Positions 41,924-54,133 of a stretch of 64,000 nt of DNA are shown one piece after another. The position numbers and the translations under genes are program-made. The notes under the pieces were generated by a model. It worked only from the letters and a program-made list of their open reading frames with translations. It had not been told where the DNA came from and searched no databases. The number at the start of each line of letters is the position of its first letter. The stretch's first letter is position 1. The stretch is from Dehalococcoidia bacterium (GTDB taxonomy: Bacteria > Chloroflexota > Dehalococcoidia > Lucifugimonadales > UBA3495): positions 1,895,086 to 1,959,085 of the forward strand of contig OZ244811.1 in NCBI GenBank assembly GCA_965220105.1, in the 5' to 3' direction.

Positions 41924-43129
41924 TACCGTTTCAATCTGATCTTGTCGGATAGATATGTTGGAGCTTACGGCGAGCATCTTGGGTGGTAAACCGCCAGTCG
42001 ATGGCTAATCTTGCTGCGTTGCGCTCGCGTTCGAGCGCCGCAACCTCTCGCCGCAGCTCCGCCTCATCGCTGATACGGCGGTTCAGACATCCCCTGCTGA
42101 AGACGCTCAACTCGATCTCAGCCATATTCAGCCAGCTGCCGTGGGTGGGAGTGCAATGAAACTCGAGGCGTTGGGCGATGCGCCGAGCTTCGGATGGCTC
42201 AAATGCTTCGTAGAGCGCGCCGAGCTGGTGGGTGTTGAGGTTGTCCAGTACCAGCCTGACCACCTCGGCATCAGGGTAGGCCTCGTCCACCAGCCACCGC
42301 ATCTGGTGCGCGAAGTCCACGGCAGTGCGGCGCTCGGTCACCTCCACAGGTCTCCAGCCACCCCTCGGCTCACAGATCATGAACAGGTTCCGGGTCCCGT
42401 TACGCTGGTACTCGGTGTCATAGCGTGCCACCCGTCCCGGGGCAGCCTCCAGGGGCGGACGCACCTCTCCAGTCAATTGCCGGGAGGTCTCGTCGAAACA
42501 CACTACCGGACGCTCCGGATTGCACTCCGGTTGGTACAGGTCCAGCACGTCCTCCATCCGCGCCACGAACTCCCCGCTCACCTTGGGGATACACCACTCT
42601 TGCTTCTTCCAGGGCTTGAGTTCGTTTTTTTGAGCATCTGGCGCACCGTCTCCAGGGAGATGCTATCGGCAAACTCCAACTCCACCACCTGGTCGGCCAA
42701 CAACTGGAGTGTCCAGTGCGTGTGCCCTTCGGGCGCGGCGCTGCACGCAATGGCGATCAGGTGCGCTTCCTGCTTGCCGTCCAGCTTGCGCTCCTGGCCC
42801 GGCCGCGGTCGGTCATTGCTGGCGGCCTCAAGTCCTTCCTCCACGTACCGCTTCCGCGCTCTGGCGACCGTGGCCGCGTTGACCAACAGCACATCGGCTA
42901 GCTCACGGTCCCCAAGCCCCTGGTCAGCCTTGAGCAGCGACAGCGCACGCTTCACGGTGCGCACTGACGCCTTGCCTCGCTGGGACACCTCATTGAGACG
43001 GGAGCGTTCGGCCTCGGTCAGCTCTACTTTATACTTGATGGCAGCCCTGGCTGGGCATTTCCTCACACAAAGCTCATGCCCAAGTATGGCTGCTTTCTTA
43101 TATTCTTACAAATCTACCTAGTAACGGTA
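41924..43129 (-). mobile_element. IS630-family element, copy 2 (tandem, slightly diverged)
   Basis: Same 1206-bp architecture, 4 bp (CTAG) after copy 1. There are at least 11 amino-acid substitutions. The OrfA ATG is changed to AGG (MAAIKY becomes RAAIKY). Confidence 0.9.
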
Positions 43130-43260: not shown

Positions 43261-44067
43261 GGTTCTGTTGACATTTGATTATAATGGCCGTATGTCAAAC
43301 ATCAGATTATCACCAGAACAGTGGGCTAGGATTCTCGATTTCTTGCGTGGCTGCACCGGCCTGTACGTTGGCCAGGAAGCGGATTGCCGGCGTTTTGTCG
43401 AGGCCGTCTTATGGATTAATCGCTCTGGGGCCCAGTGGCGACTGCTGCCGGCCGAATACGGGAACTGGAACACCGTCTACAAACGATTCGCCCGTTGGAC
43501 TGACCAAGGGGTCTGGGCACAAATGCATCAACATTGCTCCGACGATGCGGATCTGGAATACCTGATCATCGACAGCACGGTGGTTCGGGCGCACCCTTGC
43601 GCGGCAGGAGCTCCCCCAAAAAGGGTGGCCAGGCTGCCCAGGCCCTGGGCCGGAGCCGCGGCGGGTTCAGCGCCAAGATTCACGTGAGCGTGGACGGCTT
43701 GGGCAACCCCTTGCGATTCATCCTGACCGGCGGGCAACAGCACGACATCACCCAGGCGGAGGGTTTGATCGCCGGTTATGCTGGCGAGCACGTACTGGCC
43801 GACCAAGGGTACGATGCCCAGGAGTTTCGCCGACACATTCTGGGACTGGGTATGATGCCGGTCATTCCGCCCCGCTCGAACCGCAAGGAACCCGCCGACT
43901 ATGACCGGCATCTGTACCGGGAGCGTCATCTGGTCGAATGCTTCATCAACAAAATCAAGCACTATCGCCGGATCTTCTCCCGGTTTGAGAAGCTGGACAC
44001 CAGATACCTGGGCTTCCTGCATTTCACCGCCGCTCTCATCTGGCTACGGTGAAATGTCAACAGAACC
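43261..44067 (+). mobile_element. IS5-family (IS427-group-like) element
   Basis: Perfect 16-bp IRs GGTTCTGTTGACATTT and AAATGTCAACAGAACC. ORFs 43268-43687 and 43534-44052 are joined by -1 slippage at CCAAAAAGG. Flanking TA. Confidence 0.9.
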
Positions 44068-44163
44068 TAATTTATCGATTTCGCTTCCGACTATCCCCAT
44101 AAGAATCGACCGGTCTGGGGCGCCAGAATCGACCGGTGTGTTCATCAACTGTTGCCGGACCTC

Positions 44164-44307
44164 CGCGTACACACTTTAATCTGTCATTGCGAGGAGCACA
44201 GCAACGTGGCAATCTCGATGAGGTTGAACACACGTCGGCGAACCGCCGTTGCTACGACGACGAGATTGCCACGCTACGCTCGCAATGACAAAGTGGGTAC
44301 GCATGAG
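44164..44307. repeat. Long-hairpin intergenic repeat, copy B
   Basis: See copy A at 22-165. Confidence 0.8.
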
Positions 44308-44504
44308 TTGGCGGACGCACCGACAGATTTGGCATATCCCTGCTATAATTCTTATGTTGTGCCAACGTCGGGAGGTCTGATTATCCCATATCCCGACTCT
44401 CGTACCAACCAGGGCAGTCGGCCGGATTCTGCCCCGATTGTCGCCGGAATCGGCCCGCCCGTTCAACCTGACCTGTTGACTTAAAACGCTGAGGAGCCCC
44501 TCCC

Positions 44505-45620
44505 ATGACCCTGACCAAGATCGCCCAGCAGAACCTGCGTACTCCCGGACCTACCCCAATACCGGACGACATCGTTGAAGAGATGTCGCTGCCGATGATC
44601 AACCACCGGGGGCCTGAGTTCAAGGAGCTGATTGAGGCTACCACCGCCGGCCTGAAGCAGGTCTTCATGACCAACGACGACCTGTACATCCTGACCGCCA
44701 GCGGCACCGGGGCCCTGGAGGCCGCCGTGGTCAACACCCTGTCCCCCGGCGACCGGGTCATCGCCTGCACCGCCGGTTCTTTCGGCGACCGCTTCGTCCA
44801 GATTGCCGAGACCTACGGCGCCGACGTGCTCCGCATGGACTTTGAATGGGGCGACGCCATCGACGCCGAAGCCATCCGGGCCGAGTTGCGGCAGGACGCC
44901 TCCATCAAGGCGGTGCTGGTCACCCACAACGAGACCTCCACCGGCGTGACCCACGACCTGGAATCCATCGCCAGGGTGGTCAAGGGCGAGTTCGGCAAGC
45001 TCCTGCTGGTGGACGCCGTCAGCAGCCTGGGCTGCCTGCCCCTGCCCGTGGACGGCTGGGACTGCGATATGGTCGCCACCGGGTCGCAGAAGGGTTTCAT
45101 GATTCCGCCCGGGCTGGCCTTCATCAGCATCAGCGCCAGGGGTTGGGAAGCCTACCAGGACGCGAAGATGCCCAAGTTCTATTTCGACCTGATGGCTGCC
45201 GAGCGTTCGCTGTCCCGAGGCCAGACCCCCTGGACGCCCAACGTGGCCCTCCTCTACGGCCTGCGCCTGGGCCTGGACCGCATCCTCAGCGAGGGGCTGG
45301 AATCGGTGTACGATCGCCACGCCGGCATCGGTGAATACTGCCGGGCGGGCGTCAAGGAGTTGGGCCTGCAACTGCTGGCCAACGACGAATCCCGCGCGTC
45401 CAACACCGTGACCGCCGTCAAGATGCCCGAAGAGATCGACGGCGGCAGGTTCATGGCCATGATGCGCGAGGACGAGGGCGTGGTGCTGGCCGGCGGCCAG
45501 GGCAAGCTGACCGGCCTCACCTTCCGGATCGGACACTTGGGTTGGGTGACCAAAGAAGACATCACCGAGGTTCTGGACGCGCTGGGACGCGTATTGCCCA
45601 AGGTCGGTTTCAAAGGATAA
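44505..45620 (+). CDS. Class V PLP-dependent aminotransferase (AGXT/SGAT/SerC-like)
   Basis: 371 aa with GAGGAG RBS. Motifs TPGPTPIP, NHRGPEF, HNETSTG and TGSQKG (PLP lysine) are present. Confidence 0.85.
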   Translation: MTLTKIAQQNLRTPGPTPIPDDIVEEMSLPMINHRGPEFKELIEATTAGLKQVFMTNDDLYILTASGTGALEAAVVNTLSPGDRVIACTAGSFGDRFVQIAETYGADVLRMDFEWGDAIDAEAIRAELRQDASIKAVLVTHNETSTGVTHDLESIARVVKGEFGKLLLVDAVSSLGCLPLPVDGWDCDMVATGSQKGFMIPPGLAFISISARGWEAYQDAKMPKFYFDLMAAERSLSRGQTPWTPNVALLYGLRLGLDRILSEGLESVYDRHAGIGEYCRAGVKELGLQLLANDESRASNTVTAVKMPEEIDGGRFMAMMREDEGVVLAGGQGKLTGLTFRIGHLGWVTKEDITEVLDALGRVLPKVGFKG

Positions 45621-45699
45621 GCGGTCGGATCAACGTCGGTCCGGTCACCGGTCGAACCATCGGTAGAAAGGTTCTGGGGCAACGTAAACCCCCGATGGA

Positions 45700-46170
45700 G
45701 TGACGGATATGTCCACCAACTCGCAGCTACAACAGGCCATGGCGACTCTCCGGCTGTCCCTGGCCGAGATTCGTCACAAAGAAGAGCAGCTGGACGCCTC
45801 CATAAGCCAGTTCCGTACGCAGATGCGTCGGCTCCCCCGCCAGAACATCTATGGCCGGGCTCCCCTGGAAATGGCATTGTCGGCCATGGGCGAGGTGGAG
45901 GAGCGGTTGCAGGACGCCGAAGCCACCCGTCGCCGACTGCTGACAGTCAAGAAAGCCGCTCAAGAAGAACTCGCCGCGCTGGAATCGGTGCAGCAGGTGG
46001 ACGAAGCCCGCAAGTCCCTCGCCCAGCTCAAGCAGCAATCCCGAGGGTTGCCGCCGTCCGATGAAGCCGCCGCCGAAATCCGACGCCTGGAACACTTCAT
46101 CGCCCAGCACAGCCGCCGCGCCGAGCAGACCATCACCGCCAACTTCCAGGAACGCCGCGAGCAGGGGTAA
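45700..46170 (+). CDS. Hypothetical coiled-coil protein
   Basis: 156-aa ORF rich in Q/E/R/A heptad-like sequence. No motif recognised. Confidence 0.45.
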   Translation: MTDMSTNSQLQQAMATLRLSLAEIRHKEEQLDASISQFRTQMRRLPRQNIYGRAPLEMALSAMGEVEERLQDAEATRRRLLTVKKAAQEELAALESVQQVDEARKSLAQLKQQSRGLPPSDEAAAEIRRLEHFIAQHSRRAEQTITANFQERREQG

Positions 46171-46222
46171 CGGCGCCGCTGCTCCCTCCACAGCAAGGGG
46201 TGGGCATTTGGGCGGCGACTAT

Positions 46223-46267
46223 CCCCTCCCCTCCCCCTTGATGGGAGAGGGCCAGGGTGAGGGTGAA
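46223..46267. repeat. REP-like hairpin element (CCCCTC(T)CCC-loop-GGGAGAGGG...GGTGAGGGTG family)
   Basis: Related copies at 50805-50837, 52691-52739, 53621-53669 and 55551-55588 (inverted), plus a degenerate inverted copy at about 50881-50919. Confidence 0.7.
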
Positions 46268-46296
46268 GCAGCATCGGGCGCTGATATACTGGCTTC

Positions 46297-47608
46297 ATGG
46301 ACTCCATAACGCTCGAAAACTACCGTTGCTTCGGCGAAAAACAAACCGCGCGCCTGGCTCCGCTGACGCTGTTGGTTGGCCCCAACAGCACCGGGAAAAC
46401 ATCGTTCCTGGCGCTGATACGGGCACTTTGGGATACGGTCTTCGGTGAATCGATTACCCAATTTCCGGGAGTTCCCATACGATCTGGGTTCGTTCCAGGA
46501 CATAGCCCACAGTCGCGGGGCCAGGGGTAGTCAAGCCAGCGAATTTGGGGCCGGATTCGACTTTTCACCCATAGAAACAATGGAAGGCTCGCCTGTCCAC
46601 ATGTGGGTCACTTTCGAGAATCGTGACACCGCTCCCTTTCCCAGATTTACTAGCGCGGTGTCCACCGAAGTAACGTGGGAGATATGTGCCGGCGGAGAGG
46701 GTGCGTCGCAAGGGAGATTTCGTGTCGGCGACGGAGAATGGCAACCCTATCCGATGCTTGAAGGGAACATAGAACTTCATGGCCGGTTCCCTTTGTCGAC
46801 CCAGTTATCGCGGCTGCACCGGACTTTTCCGCATAGGAATAGTTTCGATCCCTCCGAAAGTGACATTGATTATACCCCGATGATGGAATTAGGGGCTGTG
46901 ATTTTTGCAGTGCGGAATTTTTTGCGCCGTCCGTTTGCCAATGCAGCCATCCGCTCTCGGCCACAACGGAGGTACGACCCAATGCTTCAGACGCCGGACG
47001 CTCAGGGAGAATACATACCAAGCTACTTGGCTGGGTTGGCCCGGTCTGACCCTGACGAATGGCAGTCGTTAAAGCGCCGTCTAGAGAGATTCGGGGACCA
47101 ATCAGGATTATTCGACGAAATCTCCGTCAGATCACTCGGAAAATCGGACGGCGACCCTTTTCAACTGCAAATCCGCAAGTTCGGGAAGCGTAGAAAGGGC
47201 CGACCTCGTAACCTGATTGACGTTGGGTACGGTATCAGCCAAGTGTTGCCCACTTTGACCGAAGTTTTTCGCGCAAACGGACCCTCGACTTTTCTCTTGC
47301 AGCAACCGGAAGTGCACTTGCACCCCAGCGCTCAGGCGGCGTTAGGTACCCTGTTCTGCTCCGTCGCCGCCGGGGGCCGCCAACTGGTAATCGAAACCCA
47401 CAGCGACTACATCATCGACCGGGTGCGGATGGACGTGCGCGACGGAACCACCGGCCTCAAGCCTGAGGACGTATCAATCCTCTACTTTGAACCGGGCGAT
47501 TTGGATGTGAAGATTCACTCGATTCGCATAGACCAAGCCGGGAACGTGCTGGATGCACCGCATTCATATGGAAAGTTCTTCATGGATGAGGTTAGTAGGT
47601 CTAGGTAG
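46297..47608 (+). pseudogene. AAA ATPase with DUF3696-like C-terminus, one frameshift
   Basis: The Walker A part (LLVGPNSTGKTS) is in ORF 46297-46530 and the rest in ORF 46445-47608 (GYGISQVLP, LLQQPEVHLHP, IETHSDYIIDR). The shift lies at CCC 46458-46460. Lower GC than the flanks. Confidence 0.75.
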
Positions 47609-47621
47609 TGTCCCGTCAATA

Positions 47622-48949
47622 GGTGTAAAAGCGCGTCATCCCTTTTGATGTTGATTAGGTCGCTGTGTCCAGCATATTGGGCGTCGGCAGTGCCTCGTTG
47701 CCGGCGGCGTTGGGGATGGTGAGGTAGCGGCGGGCTTCGGCCCATTCGTCGTGCTGCTCGGCCAGCACCGCGCCCACCAGGCGCCGCGCCGACAGCCGGT
47801 TGGGGAAGATGCCCACCACATCAGTGCGGCGCCTTATCTCCCGGTTCAGCCGTTCCTGCGGGTTGTTGGACCACAGCTTCTGCCAGTGGGCCACTGGGAA
47901 GGCCGTGAAGGCCAGGAGGTCCGGCGCGGCGTCCGCCAGCAGCTCCGCCACCTGGGGAAAGGGCTCCCGAAGTTGTTCCACCACTCGGTCTAGTTGGCCG
48001 TGGACCTCGGCGGGAGACAGTTGCTGGTAGATGGTGCGTACCATGGTGGCCACGCCAGGTTGGGCACGCTTGGGCACTCGGGTGAGCAGGTTGGCCATGA
48101 AGTGAGTGCGGCAGCGCTGCCAGCTGGCTCCAGCAAACACCGCGGCGATGGCGTTCTTCAGCCCCTGGTGGGCATCGGAGGTAACCAGTTCCACCCCGCT
48201 GAGCCCCCGAGCGGTCAGCGACCGCAGGAAGGCCAGCCAGAAGGCGCCGTCCTCGCTGGCGCCCACGTCCATACCCAGGATCTCACGCTGCCCGTCGGCA
48301 TTGACCCCCGTCGCCACCACCACGCAGACGTTGACGATGCGACCGCCCTCCCGCACCTTCTGGGTCAGGCCGTCCAGCCACACGTAGGGGTAGGGGCCAC
48401 CGTCCAGGGGCCGACCCAGGAAACTCTCCACCACCTCGTCCAGTTGCTCGCAGATGCGCGACACCTGGCTGCTGGAGATGCCGTCGCAGCCCAGAGATTT
48501 GATCAGGTCATCCACCCTCCTGGTGGACACGCCTTCTACATAGGCTTGCTGGATCACCGACAGCAGCGCCTTCTCACTGCGCCGCCGTGGTTCCAGCAGG
48601 CTGGGGAAGTAGCTGCCCTCCCGCAGCTTGGGAATGTGCAACTCCATGGTGCCCACCCGAGTATCCCAGGTGCGGTTGCGGTAGCCGTTGCGGTAGGTGA
48701 CCCGCTCCGAGCTGCGTTCGCCGTGATCAGCGCCGATCTGGGCGGAAACCTCGGCGTCCATGATGCCGTCCACCAGGACGCGCAGGGCTTCCCGCAGAAA
48801 GTCCACGTCTCCGTCCATACCACGCTTGCGTAATAATTCCAAAAGGTCCATTCTTTGCTTGACCACCGTCGTTCTCCTTGGTTGGGTTGTGACTTCCGAT
48901 CAAGGATGACGCGGTGGTTAGCTTTTGGCTACACCGATTCTTTTACACC
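47622..48949 (-). mobile_element. IS256-family element with intact transposase (47655-48866)
   Basis: The 403-aa ORF has IS256/mutator-type motifs (RVTYRNGY, YVWLDG, VTSDAHQGL, WQRCRTHF). The terminal inverted core is GGTGTAAAAG/CTTTTACACC. Exact ends are uncertain by about 10 bp. Confidence 0.85.
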
Positions 48950-48991
48950 ACCTCCCGGTACTCTACTTAGGTCTATCGGCCTTCGCAGGAA

Positions 48992-49474
48992 ATGAGGGTG
49001 TGCGCGATACTTGATAACAGCACCAGGGACGAGGTTTTTGGGAATACGCCGACTGATAGGGGCCAGGTTTTCTACGAGTGGATTAATCAGGGGTATGGCC
49101 GTTTAGTAATAGGCGGCACTCAGCTCCGGGATGAACTCGGTGGGAACAATGAGCAGCCCGGTTCTGTGAACTTCCGAAGGTGGCTTCCCACTGCTATACG
49201 GCTTGGCCGCGTTGCCCAACCGAATGACGACACGGTAGTGGATGCGGCAGCCAAAGCTTTGAAGACGCAAGGGATTTGTCAATCCAATGACCCTCACGTT
49301 CTCGCCCTGGCACAGCATACCGGGGCGCAGTTGCTGTACACCAACGACCAGGCGTTGCAGCGTGATTTCGGGAACCGCGCCATTATCGGCGGTATAGGCG
49401 GCAAGGTTTATCCCAATACGGATTATCGCGAGTTCTTGAACAACCGTCGCAACCGCCGTTTGTGCAACAGGTGA
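48992..49474 (+). CDS. PIN-like domain protein
   Basis: 160 aa. The pattern ILDNS...SNDPHVLALA...LLYTNDQAL..DF resembles PIN-like nucleases (recalled pattern only). Confidence 0.5.
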   Translation: MRVCAILDNSTRDEVFGNTPTDRGQVFYEWINQGYGRLVIGGTQLRDELGGNNEQPGSVNFRRWLPTAIRLGRVAQPNDDTVVDAAAKALKTQGICQSNDPHVLALAQHTGAQLLYTNDQALQRDFGNRAIIGGIGGKVYPNTDYREFLNNRRNRRLCNR

Positions 49475-49555
49475 TAATCTATTTCCAACCGCCCTCTATG
49501 GTATATTGAGCCGGCAATTTCGCTGCTAATCCATGCCCGCCAGGAGCGCTTTACA

Positions 49556-50794
49556 ATGGCCAGCAACCCGTCGTCCAGCGCAGATATCACCCAGATCTCC
49601 GATGGCACCATCACCTCCCCGCCGGGCTTCTCCGCCGGCGGCGTTTTCATCGGGCTAAAGAGCCGGGGGGAGGACAAACTTGACCTGGCGCTGCTGGTTT
49701 CGGACACCACCTGTTCGGTGGGCGGTGTGTTCACCACTTCCTCCATCCGTTCGGCCACCGTCGACCTGGACCGGGAGCGCGTCGCCCGGGGCCAGGCTCG
49801 CGCCCTCATCGTCAACGCCGGCATCGCCAATACCTGCGTCGGCCCCCAGGGTTACAAGGACGCCGAGGAGATGACCCGCCTGGCCGCCAATACCCTGGGC
49901 CTCACCACCGAAGACGTGCTGGTGTGCAGCACCGGCGTCATCGGCGTGGAGCTGCCCATGTCTCTCATCCGTTCCGGCGTAACGGCGATTTCCCTCGACG
50001 CGAGCGGCGGAAACCAGCTCGCCCGGGCCATGATGACCACCGACACCCACCCCAAGGAAACCGCCGTATCCTTCACCGCCTCCAGCGGCCAGACCATCAC
50101 CATCGGCGGCGTGGCCAAGGGGTCGGGCATGATCCACCCCAACATGGCGACCATGCTGTCCTTCGCTGCCACCGACGCCGCCGTCGACCCGGGATTTCTG
50201 CAAACCACCGTGAAGGCGGTGGCTGACGAGACCTACAACATGCTCACGGTGGACGGCGACAGCAGCACCAACGATACGTTCCTCGCTTTCGCCAACGGGC
50301 AGGCCGGCAACCCGGTAATCGACGACCGCTCGCCCGACGCCGCCGCCTTCCGCAGCGCGCTCCACCGGGTCTGCACCGATCTGACCCGCATGCTGGCCCG
50401 CGACGGCGAGGGCGCTTCGCGCCTCATAACGGTGCAGGTGGACGGCGCCCGCAGCGACGTCGACGCCCGCAAGGCCGCCAAGACCATCGCCGGCAGCAAC
50501 CTGGTGAAGTCCGCGGTCTACGGGGCCGACCCCAACTGGGGCCGCCTGATGATGGCCCTGGGCCGCAGCGGCGCCGAGGCCGTCGAGGAGCACGTCGACC
50601 TCTTCGTCAACGGTGTTTGCATCATGGAAGCCGGCACTCCAATACCATTCCATCGAGATGCTGTGGTGGCGTTGATGTCCACCGATCAGGTGGACTTTCG
50701 GGTCAGCCTGAACCTGGCCGACGGGGCCGCCACCGCCTTCGGTTGCGACCTCACCGAGCAGTACGTCATCATCAACAGCGCCTACACCACCTAG
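49556..50794 (+). CDS. argJ: Bifunctional ornithine acetyltransferase / N-acetylglutamate synthase
   Basis: Motifs GFSAGGV, NAGIANTC, MMTTDT, KGSGMIHPNMATMLSF and NSAYTT at the C-terminus. Confidence 0.93.
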   Translation: MASNPSSSADITQISDGTITSPPGFSAGGVFIGLKSRGEDKLDLALLVSDTTCSVGGVFTTSSIRSATVDLDRERVARGQARALIVNAGIANTCVGPQGYKDAEEMTRLAANTLGLTTEDVLVCSTGVIGVELPMSLIRSGVTAISLDASGGNQLARAMMTTDTHPKETAVSFTASSGQTITIGGVAKGSGMIHPNMATMLSFAATDAAVDPGFLQTTVKAVADETYNMLTVDGDSSTNDTFLAFANGQAGNPVIDDRSPDAAAFRSALHRVCTDLTRMLARDGEGASRLITVQVDGARSDVDARKAAKTIAGSNLVKSAVYGADPNWGRLMMALGRSGAEAVEEHVDLFVNGVCIMEAGTPIPFHRDAVVALMSTDQVDFRVSLNLADGAATAFGCDLTEQYVIINSAYTT

Positions 50795-50804
50795 AGATTA
50801 CTTG

Positions 50805-50837
50805 TCCCCTCTCCCTTGATGGGAGAGGGTGAGGGTG
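50805..50837. repeat. REP-like hairpin element
   Basis: TCCCCTCTCCC-TTGAT-GGGAGAGGGTGAGGGTG, directly after the argJ stop. Confidence 0.7.
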
Positions 50838-50959
50838 AAAAACCTCGAATAGCCATTCGTTCCGGGCCCGGCGGGGGGTTCCCCCTCACCCCAGCCATCT
50901 CCCACCAGGGGAGCGGGAGCCGCCGGCGCCACAGCATCAGCCATTGAGCACCGCAAACC

Positions 50960-51763
50960 GTGTCGCAACCATCCAAACCGGCCCCCATCGTCGTTAAAAT
51001 CGGCGGCAGCACCCTGGGCAGAAATGATACATCGTTGCAGGATTTGGTGGAATTGCACCGGGCGGGGCGGCCCGTGGTCATCGTTCACGGTGGGGGCAAC
51101 GTCATCAGCGAGTGGATGCGGCGGCAGAACCTGGCGCCCAACTTTGTCAACGGTCTCAGGGTCACCGACGCCCCTGCGCTGGAGATTGTCGTCGCCGTCC
51201 TGGGCGGCTTGGTGAACAAGGAACTGACCGCCCAGCTGCAGAACCTGGGCGCGCCCACCATCGGCCTCAGCGGCATGGACGGTTGCCTTTTGCAGGCCTG
51301 GGTCGCCAACCCCGAACTCGGCTACGTCGGGGAGATCGCCCGGGTCGACACCACACCCGTCGATGCCATCGTCGCCGCCGGTTTCATCCCCATGATTTCG
51401 CCCATCGCCGTGGATGTTACCGACGGCAGCGACCACGCCGGGCAACCCCTCAACGTCAACGGCGATACGGCAGCCGGTGCTCTCGCCCACGCCCTGGGGG
51501 CGGAGCGGGTCATCTTCCTGACCGACGTCGCCGGCGTCATGGATAACGGCGGGCGGGTGATTCCGCGCCTGAACTCCCGCACCGCTGAGAACCTGCGTAA
51601 CTCAGGCGTGGCCCGCGGCGGGATGCTGCCCAAGCTGGATGCCTGCCTGGCCGCGCTGACCGACCACGCCGTTCCCAGCGCTCATATCATCGACGGGCGG
51701 GAGCCTGGCGCCCTGATGGAGTGCATCAACGGCAACCCCATCGGCACCCGCATTACGCCGTAG
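50960..51763 (+). CDS. argB: Acetylglutamate kinase
   Basis: GTG start. Motifs IVVKIGGS, VIVHGGG, NVNGDTAAG and GGMLPKL. Confidence 0.93.
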   Translation: MSQPSKPAPIVVKIGGSTLGRNDTSLQDLVELHRAGRPVVIVHGGGNVISEWMRRQNLAPNFVNGLRVTDAPALEIVVAVLGGLVNKELTAQLQNLGAPTIGLSGMDGCLLQAWVANPELGYVGEIARVDTTPVDAIVAAGFIPMISPIAVDVTDGSDHAGQPLNVNGDTAAGALAHALGAERVIFLTDVAGVMDNGGRVIPRLNSRTAENLRNSGVARGGMLPKLDACLAALTDHAVPSAHIIDGREPGALMECINGNPIGTRITP

Positions 51764-51926
51764 GCAGCGCTTAACGCCGTCCAACCAGTTCCTTGCCAGG
51801 CAGTTCGAGGGTGTCCTTCAACAGCCTCATAATGAATGGTAACCGGCCGGATCTCGCCGTTCAGGGGACACCCGGGCCCGAGCAGTGCATCTTGACATCA
51901 AACAGATCGCGCACTATGATGCGGGC

Positions 51927-52187
51927 ATGAGAACCACGTTGACTTTGGACGACGATTTGGCCGATGCCCTACGGGAGCGTGCGTTCCTCATGAATCTGCC
52001 TTTCAAACAGGTGGTGAACGACGCGATACGACGGGGGCTGTCTCCTGAGGCTTCACCGGATCGTGTGCCACGTTTCAGGGTAGTTCCCAACAAGAGCGGG
52101 TTCGCGCCTGGCGTCGACCCTTTGCGTCTGAATCAGCTCAACGACCAGCTCCAAGCCGAGGAATTCGGCGCAGCGGACTCGCCTTGA
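51927..52187 (+). CDS. vapB: VapB-type antitoxin
   Basis: Starts MRTTLTLDDDLADALRE. The stop overlaps the vapC start. Confidence 0.75.
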   Translation: MRTTLTLDDDLADALRERAFLMNLPFKQVVNDAIRRGLSPEASPDRVPRFRVVPNKSGFAPGVDPLRLNQLNDQLQAEEFGAADSP

Positions 52188-52618
52188 TAGTCCCAGACGT
52201 GAACCTGTTAGTGTATGCCTATAACGACGCGGTCCAGTGGCACGAGCCGGCGTTGCGGTGGTGGGAAGATATGGTGAACGGCACCGAACGGGTGGGGATC
52301 CCGTGGGTGGTAACCACCGGTTTTATGCGGCTCATGACCCACCCGAGGTTGTTGGCTGTGCCGATCGACGGCGCTCAAGCCATCGATGTCGTGGCGGAAT
52401 GGTTCCGGTTTCCCAACGTAGTGCCCATCAATCCAGGGACCGACCATCTCACCTACCTGCGGCGCAACTTGGAAGCCGCCGGGGTGGGAGGAAACCTGGT
52501 TACCGATTGTCACCTGGCCGCATTGGCCATGGAGTACCAGGCTGAGTTGCACTCCAACGATACCGACTTCAGCCGCTTCCCAGGCCTTCGCTGGCGTAAT
52601 CCTCTGACGCCGGTGTGA
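52184..52618 (+). CDS. vapC: PIN-domain toxin VapC
   Basis: Reads MIVPDVNLLVYA...TD.HLAALA...LHSNDTDF across 144 aa. Confidence 0.85.
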   Translation: MIVPDVNLLVYAYNDAVQWHEPALRWWEDMVNGTERVGIPWVVTTGFMRLMTHPRLLAVPIDGAQAIDVVAEWFRFPNVVPINPGTDHLTYLRRNLEAAGVGGNLVTDCHLAALAMEYQAELHSNDTDFSRFPGLRWRNPLTPV

Positions 52619-52869: not shown

Positions 52870-53559
52870 CTATGTACCGTCATCGCCGTTGAATTGAGTG
52901 ATTCGCTTGGGGTTTTTGGGCGACAGTGAGTAACGTGATTCCAGGCTGTCTAGCTCTTCCAACACCTTGACTAAGCGCCGACGGGTCTCTGGTTGGCATT
53001 GAATCAGGGCGTGAATCAGTTCTTGGACCTTACCGTCCGCGCCAGACTGTGTTCTGCGGATTTGTTGCTGACGCGGAATATTGCTTATGCCCACTTGATC
53101 GAAGACTATCGTATTCCAAGCGTAGGCCCATTTCGGTTTCAGTTCATCATTCGGGGAAGGGACCAAGGCTTTGAGTTCGTCCTCGTTGCGGACCGGGACT
53201 TGTACTACTTCCACGTCACGATTTTGCAACTGTTCCAGCTTTGCCATTTTCTTCGACGTGGGCGGAGACGTTACTACGACCTCGATGACCCGCACTGGCC
53301 GCAAGTCTTTATCCAGCAACGCCAAATCGGGTATGCAACCACCGATGGGTTGCATCGAATCGGGAATCACCACACGGTCAACGCCCTCTTTCAGGTTGCC
53401 TGATATACTGCCGTCGATCTTTTTAACGGCTACTGCATCATTGTTGTGCAAGGCATCCCATAGCAAGCCCACAGCGTATTCGTGGAGGAATGACACAGGA
53501 AATGCCGGACTACCGACGTTCCTATCCCATTCGGCTCCGGGCAGCATCGGATCCGACAT
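52870..53559 (-). CDS. Putative PD-(D/E)xK-fold (CoiA/restriction-endonuclease-like) protein
   Basis: 229 aa from the ATG at 53559 (GAGGTAAAGG RBS). Reads FLHEYAV...IPDLALLD...VRVIEVVVTSPPT...K. Lower GC. The fold assignment is an inference from motif spacing. Confidence 0.55.
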   Translation of the reverse strand: MSDPMLPGAEWDRNVGSPAFPVSFLHEYAVGLLWDALHNNDAVAVKKIDGSISGNLKEGVDRVVIPDSMQPIGGCIPDLALLDKDLRPVRVIEVVVTSPPTSKKMAKLEQLQNRDVEVVQVPVRNEDELKALVPSPNDELKPKWAYAWNTIVFDQVGISNIPRQQQIRRTQSGADGKVQELIHALIQCQPETRRRLVKVLEELDSLESRYSLSPKNPKRITQFNGDDGT

Positions 53560-53615
53560 GACCTTTACCTCGTGTAGTAAGTGTAACGAACCGTCCCTGG
53601 GCGAGGGCAAGCCTA

Positions 53616-53645: not shown

Positions 53646-53740
53646 TTTGGGGTGAGGGGCGAGGGCCCCTAAGCAGCGATCAGATCTTTCGCTATGGCGT
53701 CGGTCATGATGCCGTTGTGGGCGTCCAGGTGGGCAACCAC
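53617..53740. repeat. 124-bp direct repeat, copy B (authentic 3-prime end and terminator of the 53669-54133 gene)
   Basis: See copy A. Confidence 0.95.
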
Positions 53741-54133
53741 GTCGGCGGTGGCGGCGGCCAGCAGCTCAGCGTCCAGGCCGGCGGCAGCGTCGGTGTAGCC
53801 AGCCTCGGCCAGCAGGGCGGCGGATTGCTCGCGAACCTGCTCCAGCGACCAGGCGACCTGCGCCTCGCTCTCGGTGACGTCCTCGGGGAAGTCCACGTGG
53901 GAGCCGCCGGCGCCCAGCTTATCGTAGCCGCCCTTGTGCCAGTGGCCGCGCGCGCCGTGGGGGTCAAAGCGAATGATTTCCACGCCCTGAACGTCCACGC
54001 CGAAAGTGGGGCCGCCGAACTTGGCCCGCAGGCAGCGCAGGGGCCAGCAGTACAGGGTAACGTCGCCAGTCTTGCTCAGCGGGCGGATCATCACCTTGCC
54101 CAAGTAGGACTCGCCATCAATCATAGTTGCCAT
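53669..54133 (-). CDS. Hypothetical protein (154 aa)
   Basis: GGAGGA RBS 8 nt upstream of the ATG. No motif recognised. Divergent from argD. Confidence 0.6.
   Translation of the reverse strand: MATMIDGESYLGKVMIRPLSKTGDVTLYCWPLRCLRAKFGGPTFGVDVQGVEIIRFDPHGARGHWHKGGYDKLGAGGSHVDFPEDVTESEAQVAWSLEQVREQSAALLAEAGYTDAAAGLDAELLAAATADVVAHLDAHNGIMTDAIAKDLIAA

Follow-up and report, generated by a model that had tools for sequence, protein, structure and literature searches.

In a 64,000-nt stretch of the Dehalococcoidia contig OZ244811.1 (the whole of which is called the window here), a gene for an AAA ATPase and a gene for a small PIN-like protein lie on the same strand and an IS256-family insertion sequence (IS) stands at their junction. 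Do the two genes belong together, and if they do, is the pair an anti-phage module? The first-pass annotation of the window took them for an ancestral operon with the IS between its genes, read the pair as a probable defence module and recognized no named system with this pairing. The analysis reported here leads us to conclude, with a probability of about 0.7, that an ABC ATPase plus PIN defence cassette of two translationally coupled genes, related to HEC-03 and Menshen, is present here as an inactivated copy. Coordinates of the features are collected in Table 1.

The IS contains one open reading frame (ORF) for a 403-aa transposase on the minus strand (47655-48866; Pfam Transposase_mut, E 2.6e-136) and shows the characters of the IS256 family, namely a Mutator-type DDE transposase, terminal inverted repeats and a target-site duplication within 8-9 bp; it occurs once in the window. 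The first-pass annotation had thus identified the element correctly but misplaced it, with an ATPase that ended 13 bp short of the IS and a PIN start 42 bp past it, and a gap of about 50 bp between the genes after removal of the IS. The stop codon of the present ATPase ORF (TAG, 47606-47608) is itself IS sequence, and the insertion point lies inside the ATPase gene, six codons ahead of the original stop. When the IS and one copy of TAGGTCTA are deleted, the gene reads ...DEVSRSIGLRRK followed by TGA (48993-48995), giving the protein C-terminus ...EVSRSIGLRRK. The PIN start codon (ATG 48992), only 24 nt past the IS, overlaps the restored TGA as ATGA, so that the genes, instead of being separated by a gap, had an ancestral overlap of 4 bp. 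Alignments made with tblastn using intact homologues as queries cross the junction uninterrupted (RSIGL), and the reconstructed end can be aligned at RSIGL with L002 and P0029, both of them intact homologues, the latter a 74% identical protein that ends ...EVSRSIGLLKA. A contig from another sample (L088) is 100% identical to window positions 44000-47603 joined to 48968-52000, with TAGGTCTA present only once. This contig is therefore a true empty site, which proves both the IS insertion and the reconstruction of the junction; an intergenic position of the IS is ruled out by the inverted repeats, the target duplication and this empty site. A scan for promoters and terminators gave nothing useful.

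Upstream of the IS a single ATPase is encoded by two same-strand ORFs, one of 77 aa (46297-46530, +) and one of 387 aa in the next frame (46445-47608, +). The 77-aa ORF matches Pfam AAA_15 (1e-9) and AAA_23, and the 387-aa ORF matches AAA_21 (1.1e-15), AAA_15 and, under the Pfam cut-off, DUF3696 (E 0.0073). At the frameshift site intact homologues, including P0029, read GESIPNFREF (homologue reading ALWDTVFGESIPNFREFPYDLGSF), and the window matches ALWDTVFGESIPNFREFPYDLGSF once one base near 46456 (att[a]ccc) is removed. Mending the frameshift and excising the IS yields a corrected ATPase of 441 aa. The same extra base is present in L088 and in a further contig, L087, both from other samples and both without the IS; L087 has an additional 2-bp insertion within the ATPase gene, and all three retain an intact PIN ORF. 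Because the base recurs in L087 and L088, an assembly error confined to the window is unlikely as the source of the frameshift, leaving a systematic sequencing error as the artefact that assemblies without reads still allow. Since both contigs carry the extra base without the IS, the frameshift predates the insertion: the frameshift killed the ATPase first, and the IS256 element landed afterwards. The ATPase in the window is a pseudogene and this copy of the cassette is inactivated. With a GC content of 0.53-0.57 in the ATPase gene and about 0.55 in the PIN ORF, compared with 0.61-0.69 in the flanking genes and the IS, the first-pass description of a lower-GC AAA ATPase with a DUF3696-like C-terminus and one frameshift is borne out, its DUF3696 part by a match below threshold.

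The association of the two genes extends well beyond this contig. Uninterrupted homologous pairs were found in other genomes and, far from never co-occurring, the genes were linked in every locus that could be assessed: the ATPase gene lies directly upstream of the PIN gene on the same strand in 84 of 84 testable loci out of 86 collected, the other two being contig ends without upstream DNA. In two look-ups seeded on the ATPase, a member of the PIN family stood immediately downstream both times. In most loci the ATPase stop and the PIN start either lie 0-4 nt apart or overlap slightly (25 loci with a spacing of 3 nt, 16 with 0 nt and 6 with 2 nt, besides several with short overlaps). For the locus survey one genome per species was scanned, and 80 of the 415 loci found were kept. 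These comprise 42 from Chloroflexota (mostly Dehalococcoidia), seven from Latescibacterota, six from Alphaproteobacteria, five from Rhodothermales, four from Binatia and three from Nitrospirota, with one or two each from Gemmatimonadota, Nitrospinota, Entotheonella, Opitutales, Acidobacteriota and Synechococcus; the paired loci span at least 12 phylum-level lineages. Clustering of the ORFs in the 3.5-kb flanks of 81 loci revealed no conserved third gene, and the largest flank clusters either reflected synteny within a lineage (ArgJ, 13 loci) or consisted of Hma genes. In two Rhodothermales metagenome-assembled genomes (MAGs) the arrangement ATPase-PIN-ATPase-PIN occurs in tandem between HmaB and HmaC (L063, 2512-6468; L076, 2509-6468), each of the tandem ATPases being about 46-49% identical to that of the window, which indicates that the pair duplicates as a unit. 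Together these observations support an ancestral operon of ATPase and PIN genes, as the first-pass annotation had proposed, and a pairing that is not due to chance. Decayed copies are also present, with the ATPase split across frames in L001/L011, L025, L066 and L086 and the PIN gene truncated in L025, L044 and L062; decay of the cassette seems frequent.

The downstream gene was described in the first-pass annotation as a PIN-like ORF of 160 aa on the same strand, a description that agrees with the profile, alignment and structure comparisons. The window protein matches Pfam PIN below threshold (E 0.00097, 20.2 bits, cut-off 23.6), and 12 of 18 family members match the same profile, with a best E of 1.7e-5. 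Homologues begin MCAILD, which corresponds to GTG 48998 in the window. In the family alignments D8, D100, D119 and D125 (window numbering) are invariant and E48 is invariant or nearly so; as read from these alignments, the D-E-D-D pattern is the canonical PIN pattern, and the PIN protein looks catalytically competent. Among the 20 best PDB matches obtained with Foldseek for its AlphaFold model, 19 were PIN, VapC or FitB structures (best E 5.4e-3, TM score about 0.5). Searches of the PDB by sequence only, with two PIN profiles, gave nothing significant. We therefore assign the 160-aa protein to the PIN superfamily with moderate confidence. An exhaustive profile search (E <= 1e-3) yielded 1,829 representative clusters at 50% identity, nearly all of them stand-alone proteins of 120-210 aa; it supersedes a first protein search that relied on exact shared words and returned only 28 PIN relatives. 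Within the surveyed pairs the PIN partner is a stand-alone protein of 150-165 aa without a C-terminal toxin domain.

The part of the ATPase in the second frame holds a variable insert, DVGYGISQ, the Walker B sequence LLQQPE, the H-loop ETHSD and a DUF3696-like C-terminal helix. Across 78 ATPase sequences there is essentially no variation in the Walker A motif G[EP]NSTGKTS, in DVGYGVSQ or in ETHSD. The Walker B consensus is hhLLQQPExHLHP, and its QQ (window residues 335-336) is present in 77 of 77 aligned homologues. The C-terminal helix spans model residues 422-435, and DUF3696 is matched weakly in 21 of 32 members (best 1.7e-4). Residues ~81-220 (window 46537-46957) are hypervariable in an otherwise well conserved protein; this is the Insert-1 region, suggested by Payne et al. 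to set trigger specificity (10.1101/2024.01.29.577857). Compared with P0029, the window ATPase is near-identical to residue 113, diverges sharply and is conserved again from about residue 215. Such a block of divergence in the putative sensor insert suggests either segment replacement or diversifying selection. The only PDB sequence match of the ATPase was the OLD-family nuclease 6p74 (5.7e-11), and its poor AlphaFold model retrieved Rad50/SMC heads with Foldseek, matches that support a general ABC-ATPase fold and no more.

Is this pairing already known? Among PADLOC models the best match of the ATPase is NsnB of Menshen, with 1.8e-34 for the window fragment and 3.9e-40 to 7.1e-49 for intact homologues, full-length in two of three (L004, 1.5e-47; L003, 7.1e-49). 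PDC-M55A, the HEC-03 ATPase model and AriA follow, together with weaker matches to PtuA and GajA; the HEC-03 ATPase model scores 7.6e-22 with the window fragment and 1.3e-18 to 2.2e-30 with intact homologues. For the PIN protein, no PADLOC family matched that of the window (E <= 0.1) or any of three homologues (E <= 0.01). The PADLOC run that the first-pass annotation had proposed thus placed the ATPase and left the PIN without a match. Two candidates were rejected at this stage: MADS, since the ATPase N-terminus matches MAD3 weakly, in the P-loop region only and far under the cut-off, and PDC-M55, whose PDC-M55A model matches the ATPase but which is a three-gene candidate.

HEC-03 (Hma-embedded candidate 03) of Pseudomonas cichorii ATCC 10857 consists of WP_025259138.1 and WP_025259137.1, and its defence against phage has been validated experimentally, with both genes needed (10.1101/2024.01.29.577857). 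Its layout is that of the window pair: a 'DUF3696 domain-containing' ABC ATPase of 461 aa followed on the same strand, with a 14-bp overlap, by a 157-aa VapC-like PIN protein. The ATPases are homologous (PADLOC model 7.6e-22 to 2.2e-30), the window protein sharing 32% identity over 125 aa with the tested HEC-03 ATPase WP_025259138.1 in BLASTP (E 8e-19), and relatives of the window pair occupy an HEC-03-like, Hma-embedded position in 10 of 81 loci. In contrast, the two PIN proteins belong to separate sequence families (no PADLOC match; profile-profile probability 4.4%), the window-family ATPase scores NsnB above the HEC-03 model, and Walker B is EQPE in HEC-03 and QQPE in the window family. The distributions differ as well, the window family lying mostly outside Hma, mainly in Chloroflexota and other uncultured lineages rather than in Proteobacteria.

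Menshen is composed of NsnA, NsnB and NsnC (Millman et al. 2022; Li et al., NAR 2025, PMC12065111). The window family resembles it in having an NsnB-type ABC ATPase with a DUF3696-like tail, in the oddities that this ATPase shares with NsnB (GxG replacing SGG and a non-canonical Walker B, reported to be EN in NsnB at the positions of the QQ; PMC12065111) and in a downstream partner that starts with a PIN-fold domain. Menshen as modelled with AlphaFold 3 has the NsnB DUF3696 helices surrounding the PIN-like domain of NsnC (PMC12065111). Menshen always has NsnA (ParB-DUF262 plus ParBDB), however, which the window pair lacks: the genes upstream in the window encode a 156-aa protein and an aminotransferase, and the Pfam families that recur in at least two of 83 neighbouring ORFs do not include DUF262. 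Because the published Menshen survey was seeded on DUF262, it could not capture pairs without NsnA. Moreover, in NsnC the PIN-like domain is inactive and forms the N-terminal part of a fusion with a nuclease or toxin domain at the C-terminus, whereas the partner in the window family is a stand-alone PIN protein of ~158 aa; the D-E-D-D residues kept in this family are absent from all NsnC inPIN families, which are described as inactive (PMC12065111). A more general likeness is found with PARIS (AriA/AriB), Septu (PtuA/PtuB) and Gabija (GajA), which combine an OLD-type ABC ATPase (AAA_15/AAA_21) with a nuclease effector; their effectors are Toprim or HNH rather than PIN, and their ATPases have no DUF3696 tail. 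We therefore file the window family as a variant of the ABC-ATPase(DUF3696) plus PIN kind that belongs to neither HEC-03 nor Menshen. As a kind the pairing is already known from HEC-03, and to that extent it is not the unnamed combination that it was first taken for; the window PIN nevertheless belongs to a different sequence family, one that is undetected by PADLOC v2. With NsnB as the best PADLOC match and the architecture of HEC-03, reading the pair as anti-phage, as in the first-pass annotation, is reasonable by analogy.

The position of the pair in the Hma loci bears on the same question. HmaB (DUF1156 methylase) is upstream of the pair in the ten loci mentioned above (L004, L031, L042, L063, L064, L066, L067, L076, L080 and L086), and HmaC (DUF499 ATPase) is downstream in nine of these ten, so that the pair is sandwiched between HmaB and HmaC. 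An Hma-embedded position was the basis on which Payne et al. discovered the HEC systems (10.1101/2024.01.29.577857). Such embedding points to defence and speaks against the possibility that the pair is a toxin-antitoxin (TA) or addiction module without a dedicated anti-phage role, in which the PIN protein would be a VapC-type toxin and the ATPase would neutralize it in VapB's place. As in a type II VapBC system, one partner is a small PIN protein whose fold matches are VapC-like and whose acidic residues are conserved; most copies stand alone among housekeeping genes in the fashion of TA cassettes, decay is frequent, and Pfam names AAA_21 a 'putative AbiEii toxin, Type IV TA system' domain. 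In place of a small DNA-binding VapB, however, the upstream gene in all 84 loci encodes the 441-aa ABC ATPase, and a frameshifted ATPase next to an intact PIN ORF, as in the window, L087 and L088, is hard to square with a role as essential antitoxin, short of silencing of the PIN gene. We consider this explanation unlikely. Should the pair instead be a remnant related to Menshen and no system in its own right, then NsnB as the best match of the ATPase, the PIN-like domain that opens NsnC, with its predicted docking on the DUF3696 tail of NsnB, and the sporadic domain loss noted in Menshen (PMC12065111) would all find an explanation. A remnant would not be expected to show strong conservation over at least 12 phylum-level lineages, and the 1,829 PIN clusters that are nearly all stand-alone at 120-210 aa, the lack of a conserved third gene and of recurrent DUF262 in the surroundings, and the presence of D-E-D-D residues that every NsnC inPIN family lacks (PMC12065111) also speak against it; we regard a remnant as very unlikely.

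A housekeeping function of the pair in the metabolism of RNA or DNA (e.g. repair or RNA processing), unconnected with conflict systems, is hardly credible. The resemblance of the ATPase fold to Rad50/SMC heads and the 13 Dehalococcoidia-type loci that hold the pair at the same site beside argJ would agree with such a role; the patchy distribution and varied genomic contexts, a GC content under that of the flanks, the repeated pseudogenization of copies, the Hma-embedded or tandem-duplicated copies and the fact that the nearest sequence relatives are defence ATPases all stand against it. A bolder variant of the defence interpretation is rather unlikely: the pairs would constitute a distinct and widespread defence family missed by current tools (~1,800 PIN clusters, at least 12 lineages) with the PIN protein as active effector, might represent a minimal or ancestral state of Menshen, from which a DUF262 sensor was gained and the PIN became an inactive dock, and would have an ATPase that, given its QQ, acts as a non-hydrolysing or slow switch.

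According to the favoured reading of a defence cassette, the first gene encodes an OLD/SMC-type ABC ATPase of ~441 aa that is NsnB-like, carries a DUF3696-like C-terminal helix and is homologous to the HEC-03 ATPase, and the second a stand-alone VapC-like PIN nuclease of ~158 aa. By analogy with the Menshen AlphaFold 3 models, with HEC-03 and with the PARIS and Septu structures cited in PMC12065111, an oligomer of the ATPase would grip the PIN protein via the C-terminal helix and the hypervariable insert (~residues 81-220) would detect a phage-derived trigger. ATP binding or hydrolysis would then switch the conformation such that the PIN nuclease is activated or released, and its cleavage of RNA would halt the growth of the infected cell and abort the infection. 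In the window genome the ATPase first suffered a 1-nt insertion at codon 54, and the IS256-family element that followed separated the intact PIN gene from the operon. The combination of a frameshifted ATPase with an intact PIN gene in three strains argues weakly that the PIN protein alone is not lethal and that activation by the ATPase fits better than sequestration; a silent PIN gene is the alternative account.

Several results weigh against this reading. No PADLOC model matches the window PIN family, whose role in defence is putative. When 34 members of the PIN family were compared with 24 HEC-03 PIN homologues in hhalign, the core was in register but the probability was 4.4%, and the comparison with the window's own VapC-like PIN protein gave 4.7%; given these low values, kinship is backed at the level of the superfamily only. 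The AlphaFold models are of moderate or low confidence, with a pLDDT of 68.5 for the PIN protein and 61.3 for the ATPase. Replacement of the Walker B acidic pair by an invariant QQ makes ATP hydrolysis uncertain. Outside the Hma loci the neighbours are mostly metabolic, with few defence-type matches (PDC-S01, type III and type IIG methyltransferases, other ABC ATPases), and enrichment in defence islands is therefore not demonstrated. Finally, a scan of IMG/VR viral contigs returned no relatives.

Pairs of an ABC ATPase and an effector are a major theme of prokaryotic immunity, and for Menshen and HEC-03 the sensing of infection by the ATPase, and its control over the effector, are at issue. 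The window family bridges the two systems, combining an NsnB-like ATPase with a DUF3696-like tail and a stand-alone, competent-looking PIN protein. As such it could serve as a simpler two-protein model for the predicted docking of DUF3696 helices on PIN, and it hints at how Menshen may have come by its inactive PIN. Uncultured Chloroflexota, Latescibacterota, Binatia and similar MAGs commonly carry the family; as it escapes PADLOC v2, it would be missing from defence inventories of such microbiomes. For the window itself the outcome is one of annotation, a pseudogenized defence cassette with a dated order of mutations.

Table 1. Positions, in window coordinates, of the ATPase and PIN genes and of the IS256-family insertion.
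Feature	Position	Strand	Basis or remark
ATPase gene start: first 53 codons, frame 1, with Walker A GPNSTGKT	46297..46455	+	ORF list; Pfam AAA_15 1e-9; tblastn with intact homologues
Frameshift base (one extra)	46456	+	Exact place within att-a-ccc uncertain to within a few nt
ATPase gene remainder, frame 2, to IS junction	46457..47603	+	PADLOC NsnB 1.8e-34; HEC-03 ATPase model 7.6e-22
Target-site duplication, left copy, 8 bp, TAGGTCTA	47596..47603	.	Sequence; one copy at L088 empty site
IS256-family insertion sequence, 1364 bp	47604..48967	-	Transposase_mut 2.6e-136; inverted repeats; missing from L087 and L088
IS terminal inverted repeats, 28 nt, imperfect	47604-47631 and 48940-48967		
Target-site duplication, right copy, 8 bp, TAGGTCTA	48968..48975	.	
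ATPase 3' end, displaced: last six codons (I)GLRRK plus original TGA	48976..48995	+	Reconstruction reads ...RSIGLRRK-stop
PIN-like effector gene, intact, 160 aa from ATG 48992	48992..49474	+	Family alignments; Pfam PIN; Foldseek

In the window and in 13 related Dehalococcoidia-type loci the pair lies between the aminotransferase gene and argJ-argB. The 156-aa protein encoded between the aminotransferase gene and the ATPase (45700-46170, +) has no significant Pfam family and one sub-threshold match, with a composition suggestive of a coiled coil. Since its conservation is restricted to the syntenic Dehalococcoidia-type loci, it probably does not belong to the module. Two further insertion sequences lie upstream: an IS630-type element (41931-43066, -) with an HTH_32 ORF and a DDE_3 ORF that overlap by 4 bp, and an IS4/IS5-type element (43268-44052, +) with a DUF4096 ORF and a DDE_Tnp_1 ORF in different frames. 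Counting the IS256-family element, three IS families are represented in ~7 kb.

The VapC-like protein used in the comparison above belongs to a separate VapBC-like pair (51885-52618, +), in which a 100-aa ORF overlaps a 144-aa PIN protein (Pfam PIN 8.5e-8); this pair is 2.4 kb downstream of the module and unrelated to it. Further downstream, a 246-aa ORF without a Pfam match occupies a low-GC patch (52870-53610, -; GC 0.52-0.53), and the gene for a DUF7700 protein (53669-54133) that adjoins it is a neighbour in related loci too. In one of the Hma-embedded loci (L031, 6937-7605) a different ABC ATPase, of the VIEEPEATIHP type, directly follows the PIN gene inside the Hma system and would be a second embedded module. 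The titles of many of the source MAGs (loci L007-L086) resemble sponge or marine-host sets (SB066x bins, RHO bins, Entotheonella, Latescibacterota, Binatia), and, judging from these record names alone, the family may be enriched in symbionts of sponges and other marine hosts.

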